Shown here: in pieces, positions 10,160-45,425 of the stretch
Layout: each line of letters starts with the position of its first letter
How positions within the stretch are numbered: position 1 is the first letter of the stretch
Origin: an uncultured Gemmatimonadales bacterium
GTDB lineage: Bacteria > Gemmatimonadota > Gemmatimonadetes > Gemmatimonadales > GWC2-71-9
Assembly: GCA_963825055.1 (NCBI GenBank)
Contig: CAWGSK010000002.1
Coordinates: 128,001-192,000, forward strand
Direction of reading: 5' to 3'
DNA length: 64,000 bases
Program-made: the position numbers and the translations under genes
Notes under the pieces: model-generated
What the model saw: the letters and a program-made list of their open reading frames with translations, nothing else
What the model was told of the DNA's origin: nothing
The model's database searches: none

Positions 10160-11569
10160 ATGAACACACGCACTGAAAAAGATCCCCTCGGCGAGAAGCA
10201 GGTTCCCGCTGACGCCCTCTACGGTATCCAGACGCTGCGCGCCCGGGAGAACTTCCCGATCTCCGGGCTCCGCCCGCTTCCCGCCTTTGTGGATGCGATG
10301 GTCTGGATCAAGCGTTCGGCGGCACTCACGCACAGGAAGACGGGGCGCCTCGAGGCCCGGCTGGCCGATGCCATTGTCCAGGCGGCCGACGAGGTGCTGG
10401 AGGGCGGGCATCGCGATCAGTTCGTGGTCGACCCGTACCAGGCGGGGGCGGGCACGAGTCACAACATGAACGTTAATGAGGTCCTCGCGAACCGGGCCAA
10501 CGAGATCCTCGGGGCCGGGCGCGGGGTGTACAAGCCGGTGCACCCGAACGACCACGTCAACATGGCACAGAGTACGAACGACACGATCCCGACCGCGATG
10601 CGGCTGGCTACGCTGGCGACCCTGCCGGCACTGCTCGAGGCGATCGACGGCCTCGGGAAGGCCTTTATCGACCGGGGCCGCGCCTTCGACCACATCGTGA
10701 AATCGGGCCGCACGCACCTCCAGGACGCCACCCCGATTCGGCTGGGACAGGAGTTCACGGCCTACGGACACACCGTCGCCCGCCACCGGCAGAAACTGGC
10801 CGAGGCCGCCGACTGGCTCCGTGCGCTCAACATCGGGGGGTCCGCGGTCGGCACGGGACTCAACGTGGAGCCGGCCTACCCCGCGCTCATGGTGGAACAC
10901 CTGCGCGAGATCACGGGGCTCGATGTGCGCGAGGGCGAGGACCGTGTCCAGCTGATGCAGTCGATGGGAGACATCGCCTCGTTCAGCGGCGCCCTGCGCG
11001 CGTATGTCCTGGACCTGAACAAGATCGCGAACGACATCCGGTTGCTGGCGAGCGGCCCGCGCACCGGCCTGGCCGAAATCGTCCTGCCGGAAGTGCAGCC
11101 GGGCTCGAGCATCATGCCCGGGAAGGTGAACCCGAGCATCGCGGAGATGGTGAACCAGGTCTGCTACCAGGCACTCGGGCTGGACGTGACCGTCGCCCTG
11201 GCCGCCGAGGCCGGCCAGCTCGAGCTGAACGTGATGATGCCTGTAATCACCCACAACATCGTCTTCGCGGTAATGATCGTGGGTAACGCCACGCGGGTCT
11301 TCGACGAGCGCTGTGTGCGCGGCATCGAGGCCGACGAGAAACAGTGCGCGCACTGGCTGGAACGCAGCCCCGCCCTCGTCACCGCCCTGGCCCCGAAGAT
11401 CGGTTACGCGGAGGCGGCCCGCCTCGCCAAGGAAGCACTCAAGACGGGGCTCACCGTCCGGGAACTGGTAGTGCAGAAGAAGGTCCTGGAAGGACCGGAG
11501 CTGGACAGGATTCTGGACCTCCGCGCAATGACCGAGCCGGGGGTGCCGGGGGGTGGGGAAAAGCGTTGA
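10160..11569 (+). CDS. aspA: Aspartate ammonia-lyase / class II fumarase family
   Basis: RTEKDPLG, YGIQTLRA, GAGTSHNMN, SGRTHLQDA, GSSIMPGKVNP. AspA versus FumC is not certain. Confidence 0.85.
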   Translation: MNTRTEKDPLGEKQVPADALYGIQTLRARENFPISGLRPLPAFVDAMVWIKRSAALTHRKTGRLEARLADAIVQAADEVLEGGHRDQFVVDPYQAGAGTSHNMNVNEVLANRANEILGAGRGVYKPVHPNDHVNMAQSTNDTIPTAMRLATLATLPALLEAIDGLGKAFIDRGRAFDHIVKSGRTHLQDATPIRLGQEFTAYGHTVARHRQKLAEAADWLRALNIGGSAVGTGLNVEPAYPALMVEHLREITGLDVREGEDRVQLMQSMGDIASFSGALRAYVLDLNKIANDIRLLASGPRTGLAEIVLPEVQPGSSIMPGKVNPSIAEMVNQVCYQALGLDVTVALAAEAGQLELNVMMPVITHNIVFAVMIVGNATRVFDERCVRGIEADEKQCAHWLERSPALVTALAPKIGYAEAARLAKEALKTGLTVRELVVQKKVLEGPELDRILDLRAMTEPGVPGGGEKR

Positions 11570-11709
11570 CGAGTTGAGTCGAGTTGAATCGTTGAGTCGT
11601 TGAGTCGTTGAGTCGTTGAGTCGTTGAATCGTTTGAACCGTGATTGTTGCCGGGAACAATACCACTACTCAACGACTTAACCGCTCAACCACTCAACCAC
11701 TCCACCAAC
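11565..11709. repeat. Inverted pair of 8-mer tandem arrays (GTTGAGTC / reverse complement)
   Basis: Left arm: four perfect GTTGAGTC at 11591-11622 plus flanking variants. Right arm: five degenerate GACTCAAC-type units at 11666-11705. Confidence 0.95.
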
Positions 11710-11739
11710 GCCCCCCCCGTCGCCATCTATATTTCCCCC

Positions 11740-42202: not shown

Positions 42203-44443
42203 ATGGAGGTTTCAGCCCGCACCCGGGCGGAGCGCGCCGCCCAGGGCCGCCCAGCCCCCGCCGACCCCCCCACGGGGGTCTTTCCCGCTCTGGCCCAGTC
42301 CGCCCCCGACTTTCAGGCGGTTCTGGAGCGGAACGCGGACCGTCTCGATCTCGACCTGATCGAGAAGGCCTGGCGTTTCAGTGCGTCCGCCCATCGGGGG
42401 CAGAAGCGGCTGTCCGGTGAGGACTTCATCTGGCACAGCGTGTCGGTCGCGATGATCCTCATCGACCAGTTGCTCGATTCCACCTCCGTCGCCGCGGCGC
42501 TCCTGCACGACGTCGTGGAGGACTCCGACGTCCGGACCGAGGACCTCGCCCGGGAGTTCGGGCCCGAGGTCGCGGGCATCGTGGACGGGCTCACCAAGAT
42601 TTCCCACCTGACCTTCCGGAGTACCGCGGAGCAGCAGGTGGAGAACTATCGCAAGCTGCTGCTGTCGGTCGCCAAGGATGCGCGGGTCATCATCATCAAG
42701 CTGGCTGACCGCCTCCACAACATGCGGACCCTCGAGCACCTGGCTCCGGAGAAGCGGAACCGCATCGCCACCGAGACGCGGGAGATCTACGCGCCGCTTG
42801 CCCATCGCTTCGGCATGGCCGAGGTCAAGGCCGAGCTGGAAGACCTGGCGTTCAAGTTCCTGGAGACGGACGAGTACGAGTCGCTGGTGCGTCAGGTGGC
42901 CGCCAAGCGCACGGTACGGGAGCAGATGATCCAGAAGCTCCGGGCGCCGCTCGAGGCCGAGCTGGGCCGGGCCGGGATCGATGTCTTCGAGGTGACCGGG
43001 CGACCCAAGCACCTCTGGTCCATCTTCCAGAAGATGCGGAAGCGGGGCAAGCCGTTCGATGAGATCTATGATCTGATGGCTGTCCGGGTGCTGGTGCGGA
43101 ATGTCCCCGAGTGCTACCACGTGCTGGGCATCATCCACCACACCTGGACCCCGATCCAGGAACGGATCAAGGACTACATCGCGAGCCCGAAATCCAACGG
43201 TTACCAGTCGCTCCACACCACCATATTCGGCCCCGGCGGCCAGCTGTTCGAGGTCCAGATCCGCACGTGGGACATGCACCGCACGGCCGAGCACGGCATC
43301 GCGGCCCACTGGGTCTACAAGCAGGATGGCGAGCACGATGAACTGGACCAGCAGTTCGGCTGGTTCCGCCAGCTGCTGGAGCTTCAGCAGGACACGCGGA
43401 GTCCCGAGGAATTCCTCGAGTTCCTGAAGATCGACCTGTACCAGGACGAGATCTTCGTCTTCACCCCGCAGGGCGACGTGAAGCGGCTCCCCAAGGGCGC
43501 CACACCGATCGACTTCGCCTTCCTCGTGCACACCGAGGTCGGCCTCCGCTGCCAGGGGGCCAAGATCAACGGCCGGATCGCGCCGCTCCACCGTGAGCTC
43601 AGGAACGGCGACACCATCGAGATCCTCACCGGGCCCTCCGCCCGCCCCAGCCGGGACTGGCTGTCGCACGTGCATACCGCGCGGGCGCGCCACAAGATCA
43701 AGCAGTGGGTCCGGCAGGAAGAGGAGGAGATGAGCGTCGCGCTGGGCCGGGAAATCCTGGCGCGCGAGGTCCGTCGCCGCCGACTCGACCCCCCCACGGA
43801 GGGCCGGATCCGGGAGGCCGCAGGCGGCCTCGGCCTCACGAACGACCACGGCCTCGAGGTCGCGCTCGGCCGGGGGGACGTGGCCATCGGGCAGGTCATC
43901 CGGCTGCTCTACCCCGACCTCAACCCGGAGCACCTGAAGGAGCCCAAGCCCACCGCCTTCGGACGGGTGATCGACCGGTTCCGGCTGGGCCGCGGCATCA
44001 AGATCCACGGCGTGGACGGCCTCATGGTCCGGTACGCCCAGTGCTGCCAGCCCGTGCCGGGAGACAGCGTAGTGGGCTACGTCACGCAGGGCCGCGGCAT
44101 CTCGATTCACAAGGCCGACTGTCCCAACCTTCTCACCCTGCCGGCCACCGACCGCCGGGTGGAGATTGACTGGCAGGAGGTCCAGGGCGAGGCCTTCGCC
44201 GTCTGCCTGGCGGTCAACGGTGAGGACCGCCGCGGGCTCTACGCAGACATCATGCAGGCCATCAGCCAGACCGGCACCAACATCAAGGGCGCGGACATCC
44301 AGAGCCGCGACAGCTCGATGTTCGGCTCGATCTTTGTGGAGGTCGACAACCTCCCCCACCTGGCGAAGGTGATGAAGGCCATCCGGAAGGTGAAGGGCGT
44401 GGCGGAGGTGGAGCGGCGGGAGCCGGGGGGGAAGGGGGAGTAG
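42203..44443 (+). CDS. relA: Bifunctional (p)ppGpp synthetase/hydrolase (long RSH)
   Basis: HD motif LLHDVVED, KLADRLHNMRTL, PKSNGYQSLHT, EVQIRT, TGS, CC and ACT domains. Confidence 0.96.
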   Translation: MEVSARTRAERAAQGRPAPADPPTGVFPALAQSAPDFQAVLERNADRLDLDLIEKAWRFSASAHRGQKRLSGEDFIWHSVSVAMILIDQLLDSTSVAAALLHDVVEDSDVRTEDLAREFGPEVAGIVDGLTKISHLTFRSTAEQQVENYRKLLLSVAKDARVIIIKLADRLHNMRTLEHLAPEKRNRIATETREIYAPLAHRFGMAEVKAELEDLAFKFLETDEYESLVRQVAAKRTVREQMIQKLRAPLEAELGRAGIDVFEVTGRPKHLWSIFQKMRKRGKPFDEIYDLMAVRVLVRNVPECYHVLGIIHHTWTPIQERIKDYIASPKSNGYQSLHTTIFGPGGQLFEVQIRTWDMHRTAEHGIAAHWVYKQDGEHDELDQQFGWFRQLLELQQDTRSPEEFLEFLKIDLYQDEIFVFTPQGDVKRLPKGATPIDFAFLVHTEVGLRCQGAKINGRIAPLHRELRNGDTIEILTGPSARPSRDWLSHVHTARARHKIKQWVRQEEEEMSVALGREILAREVRRRRLDPPTEGRIREAAGGLGLTNDHGLEVALGRGDVAIGQVIRLLYPDLNPEHLKEPKPTAFGRVIDRFRLGRGIKIHGVDGLMVRYAQCCQPVPGDSVVGYVTQGRGISIHKADCPNLLTLPATDRRVEIDWQEVQGEAFAVCLAVNGEDRRGLYADIMQAISQTGTNIKGADIQSRDSSMFGSIFVEVDNLPHLAKVMKAIRKVKGVAEVERREPGGKGE

Positions 44444-44450
44444 GGCCGCG

Positions 44451-44479
44451 GAGTCGTTGAGTGGTTGAGTCGTGGACTC
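44451..44479. repeat. Left 8-mer array (GTTGAGTG/GTTGAGTC) flanking the four-helix-bundle gene
   Basis: GAGTC GTTGAGTG GTTGAGTC GTGGACTC. Confidence 0.85.
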
Positions 44480-44483
44480 GCGC

Positions 44484-44873
44484 TCATCGGCCGCCTCGCT
44501 GCAGGCTATGGCGAAGTGAAACGATCATCCTGCCGACGTTCTCCGATATGCCCAGCAGATCCCTCACGTGATCCTTGTCCAGGTAGCCCAGCCTGCCGGC
44601 TATCATCAGATGCGTTTCAAGCTCAGCTCGACTTCCGTTCGCTATCGCGAGATACCGCCGAAAGTCTGCCCTGCTGCAGCGGGATTGCCCTTCCGCGATG
44701 TTGGCGGGGATGCTGTAGGCCGAACGTCGGAGCTGGTCCCCGAGCGCCCACCGTTCTATCGCTGGGAGTTGCCCGCTCGCCTGGGAAATCCTGACCGCGA
44801 GGTCCAGCGCGATTCTCCACACCCGAAGGGTCCGATAACTGTCCTGTCCTCACTGGGATCGGGCATCGGCCAT
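44484..44873 (-). CDS. Four-helix-bundle protein (23S rRNA IVP/Avd-like, TIGR02436 type), in-frame TGA at codon 8
   Basis: SYRTLRVWRIA...LPAIERWALGDQLRRSAYSIPANIAEG...FRRYLAIANGSRAELETHL...LGYL. The uninterrupted frame runs only from GTG 44822. Confidence 0.9.
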
Positions 44874-44954
44874 GATAAGGTGTCACGGCCGGCTGGCGAG
44901 CATCCTTCGGATGCGGATCCATTCCCAATTCCCCGCTCCCTTGCCCGGAGTAAC

Positions 44955-44987
44955 GATTGAACCACTCAACCACCCAACCACTCAACG
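44955..44987. repeat. Right 8-mer array (CACTCAAC), inverted relative to 44451-44479
   Basis: GATTGAAC CACTCAAC CACCCAAC CACTCAAC. Confidence 0.88.
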
Positions 44988-45017
44988 CCCCGGCCCCACC
45001 TCGCTAGATTAGAGTAC

Positions 45018-45421
45018 ATGGCTACCTGGATCCTCAAAACCGAACCCTCCACCTACTCCTTCGACGACCTGAGGCGGGACAAGCGGACCCCGTGGGACGG
45101 GATCCGTAACGCACTCGCGCTCAAGCACCTCCGTGCCATGAAGGTGGGGGACGAAGCCCTCATCTATCACTCCGGCAGCGGCAAGGAGATCGTCGGCCTC
45201 GCCCGGATCGTGAGCGAGCCGTATCCCGACCCGCTGCGCGATGACCCCAAGCTGGTGGTGGTGGATATCGAGGCGGTCAAGGAGGCGTCCGAGCGTGTGC
45301 CGCTCTCCACCATCAAGGCGGACCCGCTGTTCAAGGACCTCGCCCTCGTCCGGATGTCGCGCCTCTCGGTGGTGCCGGTGCCTGCCCCCCAGTGGAAGCG
45401 ACTGAAGCAGCTCGCCGGACT

Positions 45422-45425
<4 letters not shown>
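45018..45425 (+). CDS. EVE-domain protein
   Basis: [31 protein letters not shown]. Confidence 0.93.

Follow-up and report, generated by a model that had tools for sequence, protein, structure and literature searches.

The window analysed here (the whole stretch of 64,000 nucleotides, from the genome that we label G000) contains a cassette at 44444-44996, which begins directly 3′ of the relA TAG and ends 21 nt upstream of the start of an EVE-domain gene (Table 1). Its cargo is one gene for a four-helix-bundle protein of the PF05635 family (hereafter IVP; loci of such genes are given L-numbers), which matches both PF05635 (E 1.2e-31) and TIGR02436 (E 2.4e-30), and PF05635 is the only domain matched in the cassette's protein. 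The gene lies between two inverted arrays of octamers. The left arm contains four units of the GTTGAGTS type at 44448-44479 (GCGGAGTC GTTGAGTG GTTGAGTC GTGGACTC), the first of which starts 4 nt past the relA TAG and two of which (44456-44471) are perfect; the right arm contains CACTCAAC CACCCAAC CACTCAAC at 44963-44986, with matching degenerate units that start at 44947, and GGCC forms the terminus of both arms. The arms, the IVP gene and a short run of heptamers thus lie between relA and EVE where a preliminary description, made from the sequence alone, had placed them. The IVP gene is antisense to the host operon here, and both host neighbours are antisense to the gene at 45 of 93 family loci.

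Table 1. Features of the relA-EVE cassette, its host genes and the gene-less hairpin of the same octamer family (positions in the window).
Feature	Position	Strand	Remarks
Gene-less hairpin, GTTGAGTS octamer family	11564..11710	+	Overlaps the TGA (11567-11569) of a fumarase/aspartase-type gene; ends 29 nt before a ThiF gene
relA stop codon TAG	44441..44443	+	Anchor of the cassette; relA has RelA_SpoT, HD_4, TGS and ACT domains
Left G-rich arm	44444..44479	+	GGCC and four GTTGAGTS-type octamers; forms a stem with the right arm (predicted RNA fold)
IVP gene (PF05635, TIGR02436)	44484..44873	-	Antisense to relA-EVE-uvrB; open frame 44487-44849; 5′ end broken
Candidate promoter TCGCCA-16-TATCAT	44872..44899	-	Consensus match alone; 1 found vs 0.1 expected
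Inner heptamer run ATTCCCA ATTCCCC GCTCCCT	44921..44941	+	Similar to the heptamer arms on the upstream side of paralogues L002 and L007
Right C-rich arm	44947..44996	+	Degenerate inner units, three CACTCAAC-type octamers and a stem-closing GGCC
EVE-domain host gene	45018..45425	+	Next gene after the cassette

The two arms have a complementarity score of 58, which none of 2000 random genome windows of equal geometry reached (mean 31.8), and they close the cassette molecule in the predicted RNA fold, so the earlier proposal of a repeat-bounded cassette with pairable arms holds at this level. The fold of the whole cassette is modestly better than that of shuffled sequences (z -1.76; 3 of 100 shuffles), and the folding signal resides in the arms. 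The cassette has relA and EVE as flanks and is not inside an rRNA gene; no Rfam family matches in 44000-45400, and no intrinsic terminator was found at the cassette. As the preliminary description had noted, the cassette encodes no transposase, although one encoded elsewhere might act on its ends, and an RVT_1 search found no reverse transcriptase (RT) anywhere in G000 (87% complete). The last codons of relA (window 44420-44443; GGG GGG AAG GGG GAG TAG) are unusually G-rich in comparison with those of relatives, and this tail may be a heptamer arm that has grown into the gene end.

The gene belongs to PF05635, as the preliminary description had it, but its 5′ end, in a way not noticed there, is broken. 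The ATG at 44873 runs into an in-frame TGA at codon 8 (44852-44850), a second ATG (44866) is out of frame, and the sole start that opens the frame is a GTG at 44822, which gives a shortened form of 112 aa that lacks the first four Pfam positions and loses the first conserved residues. Among 97 family IVPs, this copy and one other are the only two that have no in-frame start within 25 codons. A sequencing error is an unlikely source of the TGA: two contigs from two runs (X1, depth 20, and X3) have no differing letter there, with the limit that the four runs all come from one study and that X1 may be the source of the sequence itself. No joint, flip or empty allele of the cassette was seen in the contigs of that study, which drop rare variants. 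The six invariant residues are all retained in the rest of the frame, so the damage is probably recent. A full-length protein is probably not made from this copy, and its gene is probably inactive, which makes this copy matter less than the system to which it belongs. A -10-like box (consensus match alone) ends 5 nt before the ATG at 44866, the spacing of a leaderless start, and 29 of 95 family IVPs, vs 151 of 3077 G000 genes, have TANNNT 4-8 nt upstream of the start. Damaged IVP genes recur, in this copy, in the paralogue L008 and in three Rhizobium alleles. In L008 (G000:C7:175804-176025) the Pfam match begins only at position 31, and the repeat word of this locus forms about 29 exact arrays in G000 despite the damaged gene.

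We searched 41 genomes for the EVE gene and found a match in 29 including G000, none of the others being of the same genus. Among the 28 other EVE genomes, relA directly precedes EVE in 10 and another insert separates the two genes in one; an IVP gene is found in none of these 11 relatives with relA near EVE, and none of 29 non-own EVE loci matches the IVP. Judged from this comparison, the relA-EVE cassette is an insertion. Synteny of the gene across the clade, which the preliminary description had named as evidence against its proposal, was not observed. In one relative (L028, G016:C5) a different gene lies between relA and EVE, so this junction has received inserts more than once. IVP clades keep their junctions, yet the relA-EVE site is occupied in one genome only, and one clade crosses phyla inside a methylase gene (see below). 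Phage records gave no IVP match, and among 72,556 plasmid records only 32 did, 17 of them from Nostoc, which argues that carriage by phages or plasmids is not the main route.

The genome of this window has eight IVP genes, and all eight lie within inverted arrays of 7-mers or 8-mers by eye (6 of 8 by a strict arm detector, 7 of 8 by a relaxed one). Each gene has a different repeat word: GAGAGGTC, GTGGCAA, TGACTAG, GGGCGGAC, GGGCGGTC, GTTGAGTS, GGGAGTA and GGTGAAC. The preliminary description had proposed to look for such flanks at the PF05635 genes of this genome. Outside it, too, most loci have them: arms were detected at 70 of 85 family loci (89 from the matches listed, less 4 that were too short) and, in other phyla, at 66 of 76 loci (80 less 4, the 80 being the best among 431 relatives of a single paralogue, a Rhizobiales-rich set), and several of the misses have degenerate or 9-mer arms by eye. 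By comparison, mismatched flanks passed the detector in 13 of 300 cases and a same-orientation test in 4 of 93. Among short genes of G000, arms were detected at 5 of 772, with the G-rich arm first at two, one of which is itself an IVP, so that the lack of enrichment that would have counted against the proposal was not found; this control is approximate, since the crude caller used, which yielded 3099 genes, recognised just one of the eight IVP genes. In one locus of Acidobacteriota (L175), two near-identical IVP cassettes stand in tandem, joined through an array.

The repeat word follows the protein. Word distance correlates with protein identity (Mantel rho -0.16 in the family, -0.30 overall), and within the family the same repeat period is shared by 40% of pairs with less than 35% identity and by 100% of pairs above 65%. 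The IVP of the relA-EVE cassette groups, with weak support, among heptamer-armed IVPs and yet has octamer arms (the quick tree has 105 columns, leaves 90 of 174 branches open and serves for broad grouping only). This grouping, together with an inner 7-mer run that is like the arms of paralogues, suggests that the octamer arms have likely replaced an older heptamer pair; the inner run would then likely be a remnant of the older arm, and the GTTGAGTS word may have been acquired from pre-existing arrays. The proteins are under purifying selection (dN/dS 0.00-0.17 in the 23 related pairs, of 25, that gave a value), and their presence is patchy: IVP genes are absent from 13 of 60 family genomes and from 40 of 61 Rhizobium genomes.

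The words of the arms are also dispersed over the chromosome. We found 670 arrays of period 7 or 8 in G000, vs 25 in one shuffled copy, and 601 of the 670 are intergenic. In 91 cases two arrays form a close inverted pair (spacer <100 nt), and the G-rich arm comes first in all of them. For 400 of 645 arrays the outer end lies at most 40 nt from a gene boundary (for 297 of them, just after a stop codon); for the inner end this is so in 72 cases. The preliminary description had drawn attention to arms of the GTTGAGTS type at two places; both are real, but they are not special, since this octamer forms 83-92 arrays in G000, the largest word family there even though it is that of the broken gene. 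A triple GTTGAGTS pattern occurs in G000 only, among 61 genomes. Each of the eight IVP words of G000 has 5-31 exact arrays in the genome, and 26 of 27 words from relatives match none; with up to one mismatch the eight words cover 449 of the 670 arrays, whereas eight foreign words drawn at random cover 65 on average and 161 at most. The remaining 221 arrays match no IVP word and include ACCCGAT (30), AAGGTCG (27) and ACTGCCG (22).

A similar relation between IVPs and arrays was found in other genomes. In 10 of them (40-80 kb each), a word of the genome's own IVPs is exact in 11 of 74 arrays (0.36 under the null) and present within one mismatch in 31 of 74 (3.4 under the null). Only 2 arrays were found in 389 kb from five IVP-free genomes, vs 74 in 800 kb from 11 carriers (rho 0.68; the genomes compared are related, and p-values overstate the significance), and array density in the IVP-free genomes of the family is at the shuffle background. 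The spread among carriers is uneven: G054 supplies 38 of the 74 arrays and G051 none in 80 kb. In Rhizobium, by a hand count of three array patterns away from the cassette, arrays are present in 14 of 21 IVP-positive and in 7 of 40 IVP-negative genomes, and the IVP-negative G084, G104 and G127 have long perfect arrays.

Some arrays form hairpins that contain no gene. The pair of arms without cargo that had been noticed in the window at 11565-11710 is confirmed as 11564-11710, and its fold is much more stable than that of shuffled sequences (z -5.66, reached by 0 of 200). The term "non-autonomous", which the preliminary description had applied to the cassette, fits such gene-less hairpins better than the gene-bearing cassette. 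A six-frame search of G000 found the eight IVP genes, one match at E 2.1 and no further remnant, and the interior of the cassette has no other copy except a paralogue. The gene-less hairpins of the AGTGAKT/CACTACT family share their inner ends (CTTCAGGG ... CCCTGAAG) on many contigs, and in the GCGGTGA family the hairpins have a GCCCCGC ... GAGAT spacer in common. Such sharing suggests that whole gene-less elements have been copied. When orphan arrays were compared with the inner edge of their cassette, they were similar in some families (GTGCTT in 11 orphan arrays of the L003 family) and dissimilar in others; extra degenerate units confound this comparison, from which we draw no conclusion.

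Cassettes reside long at fixed junctions, and several of them have changed there. At 5 of the 13 junctions shared by at least two family loci (two further groups that share one flank only are left out), the IVP gene occurs in both orientations. Comparison of the DNA at ABC-2 permease-mnmG, aminopeptidase-gdh, hppA-GTPase and one more junction showed that the host flanks are swapped relative to the gene, in IVP pairs of 82%, 70%, 59% and 56% identity; in the two most similar pairs, the point where the aligned interior gives way to the exchanged flank falls at the arms. The alignments of the four pairs (L064/L066, L214/L219, L061/L053 and L046/L059) show inversion between the arms. At the fifth junction the IVPs are only 42-50% identical and may represent separate insertions. 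In Rhizobium, we compared 30 alleles of a junction that we read as nuoC-nuoD (the 30 of 61 closest in flank): 17 carry an IVP gene, which is always in sense and belongs to one of three cassette types that differ in their words; the other 13 are empty. The right arm of one cassette type remains alone in 3 of the 13 empty alleles, and one allele has an internal deletion.

One clade of IVPs lies inside an N6_N4 methylase gene, in Chloroflexota, Nitrospirota, Pseudomonadota and Verrucomicrobiota (L145, L151, L158, L160, L161, L184, L190 and L304), with the IVP in another frame. All eight filled methylases have a stretch of exactly 162 stop-free codons in the methylase frame at a place where 17 empty homologues have 16 codons, the insert being of 146 codons (1 of the 20 class loci was not parsed). 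The outer units of the arms occupy the place of host methylase codons, and no target-site duplication was seen at these cassettes, where the arms replace host codons. The chance of no stop in the methylase frame is 0.10-0.34 per gene, and the same frame is also open in 19 of 170 other IVPs and in one member of the clade outside a methylase. Exactly 162 open codons in each of eight methylases fit translation through the insert, not obligatory excision; read-through of these nested cassettes has moderate support from the reading frames, and the earlier suggestion of removal from the mRNA is, as an obligatory step, not supported.

We propose that IVPs and their arrays form a cognate protein-repeat system, in which each IVP would bind its own word and help to spread the arms; we give this reading about an even chance. 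In the transcript, or in the DNA when it is single-stranded, pairing of the arms would leave the gene in a loop, so that the insert would be nearly neutral and cost the host operon little. The IVP, a predicted Avd-like pentamer, would bind its own repeat word and promote the copying of the arms to new gene ends, whether the gene goes with them or not, by means of host repair or recombination enzymes. Recombination from arm to arm, or template switching, would flip or delete the gene and keep the two arms complementary while the word drifts, and this step could explain the flips, the one-arm scars and the matched arms despite word drift. In these terms, the relA-EVE cassette appears, by its structure, to be an element of the 23S-rRNA intervening-sequence (IVS) type behind a relA stop, with the start of its gene broken. 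The dispersed GTTGAGTS arrays of G000 likely have this cassette as their parent, one that is by now inactive or shortened. A strict dependence of arrays on an IVP is argued against, since seven IVP-free Rhizobium genomes have arrays, 221 arrays of G000 remain unmatched and the largest word family is that of a broken gene. More tentatively, PF05635 proteins at large could be the specificity factors of an undescribed kind of intragenomic replicator, in which a pentamer reads its own word of 7 or 8 bases and drives the copying of arms to gene ends with no transposase or RT of its own; the 23S IVS would then have arisen as copies inserted into rRNA, and heptamer arrays, as they occur in many bacteria, would be non-autonomous offspring. 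We regard this extension as possible, though doubtful.

Arrays might instead spread by themselves, through slippage and gene conversion between gene ends, with the IVP as a passenger whose arms are overwritten by common words and whose protein has a separate job. Arrays do persist in 7 of 40 IVP-free Rhizobium genomes, one third of the arrays in G000 have no cognate IVP, the IVP of the relA-EVE cassette belongs to a heptamer clade but has octamer arms and an inner heptamer run, and two GxxExxY genes also lie within degenerate inverted arms (by eye). Self-spreading arrays would not, however, be expected to fall to the shuffle background in the IVP-free genomes of the family, to enclose other short genes almost never (2 of 772), or to have words and periods that track the protein tree (within the family, pairs below 35% identity share the period in 40% of cases and those above 65% in 100%), and we consider this explanation unlikely.

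All gene-less arrays could be scars, left when cassettes insert behind stop codons and arm recombination deletes the gene, with the protein needed only for insertion. The 3 of 13 empty nuoC-nuoD alleles that keep the right arm only, and the internally deleted allele, show that such remains occur, and the outer ends of arrays lie within 40 nt of a gene boundary (400 of 645) as cassette arms do; but about 670 arrays have accumulated with no further IVP remnant in six frames (eight genes and the one match at E 2.1), the interior of the cassette has no other copy except a paralogue, and some hairpin families share spacer ends, suggesting that gene-less elements are themselves copied. We regard scars as an improbable source of all the arrays. 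Alternatively, the host may keep the whole system, with IVPs as RNA-binding regulators and gene-end arrays as binding or RNase III sites that tune mRNA processing or stability. Strong purifying selection on IVPs, long residence at fixed junctions and anchoring at stop codons would all fit, and according to published accounts Xanthomonas arrays are mostly transcribed (PMC4692102) and a regulatory role has been proposed for TAACTGA arrays (PMC4679880). A function maintained for the host is harder to reconcile with the lack of IVPs in 40 of 61 Rhizobium genomes and in 13 of the 60 genomes of the family, with repeated lesions (this copy, L008 and three Rhizobium alleles) and with words that differ in every genus, and we think this the least probable of the three alternatives.

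By analogy, the design of the cassette is one already known in rRNA: it would work like a RAYT/REPIN system without a transposase and is built like an IVS outside rRNA. The 23S IVS of Coxiella burnetii has terminal inverted repeats with a 28-bp terminal stem, and its S23p ORF is preceded by tandem GACAGAT heptamers, at the first of which lies an RNase III site (PMC4990558). The cassette is similar in having a PF05635/S23p protein enclosed by terminal inverted repeats, which form a long closing stem, tandem heptamers upstream of the ORF, and an ORF that, in the IVS as described there, decays in some lineages (PMC4990558); it differs in lying between protein genes, antisense to the host operon, in its octamer arms and possible promoter of its own, and in having a word that is dispersed over the chromosome. 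With RAYT/REPIN systems, as they are described in bioRxiv 10.1101/2021.07.10.451892, it shares a long-resident gene with a cognate repeat type and gene-less extragenic inverted doublets, each resident IVP being flanked by a repeat type dispersed in its genome; unlike them, IVPs are no Y1/HUH transposases, the units are tandem non-palindromic 7/8-mers, and the gene changes orientation between its arms. Neither of the two Y1 transposase genes of G000 is enclosed by 7/8-mer arrays. These genes (C3:21452-21799 and C20:60213-60473) are flanked by long palindromes or tandem 60-bp repeats, and both loci resemble RAYT/REP loci, unrelated to the 7/8-mer arrays.

Dispersed heptamer arrays have been described before, as intergenic GGGAATC arrays with facing pairs in Xanthomonas and Nostoc (PMC4692102) and as TAACTGA arrays in Beggiatoaceae (PMC4679880). 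The arrays of G000 resemble them in being intergenic and often facing, with the G-rich strand after a stop and the C-rich strand before a start (PMC4692102, PMC4679880). A term search of the main texts of these two papers found no link to the PF05635 family, and no report linking IVPs to dispersed arrays was found in the literature searched, which comprised main texts outside subscription journals. Since the origin of ORF-bearing rRNA intervening sequences is called unclear (PMC4990558), and the 7-base arrays were described without a source in the main accounts of them (PMC4692102, PMC4679880), the system proposed here would join three subjects: the widespread PF05635 family, the origin of these intervening sequences, and the dispersed arrays.

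PF05635 is stated to be homologous to Avd, a pentameric, positively charged, S23-like barrel that binds an RNA stem-loop (bioRxiv 10.1101/2023.10.23.563531, PMC10053308). A PDB sequence search with the IVP matched the five-chain entries 2GSC and 2RLD; Avd was not matched. Unlike a diversity-generating retroelement, the cassette has no RT and apparently no template or variable repeat. The methylase-nested IVPs resemble ShiLan, an HNH homing endonuclease gene inserted in phage methylases, in being an out-of-frame gene within a methylase whose own frame stays open (as described in PMC11855218), but an IVP is no known nuclease, and the copy in the window is intergenic. Two GxxExxY (PF13366) genes of G000 (C13:290993-291337 and C30:97640-97984) are, by eye, enclosed by inverted repeats of the CACGAAG/CACAGAG type, which are degenerate and about 9 bases long, and GxxExxY genes are possibly a second cargo family with arms of its own.
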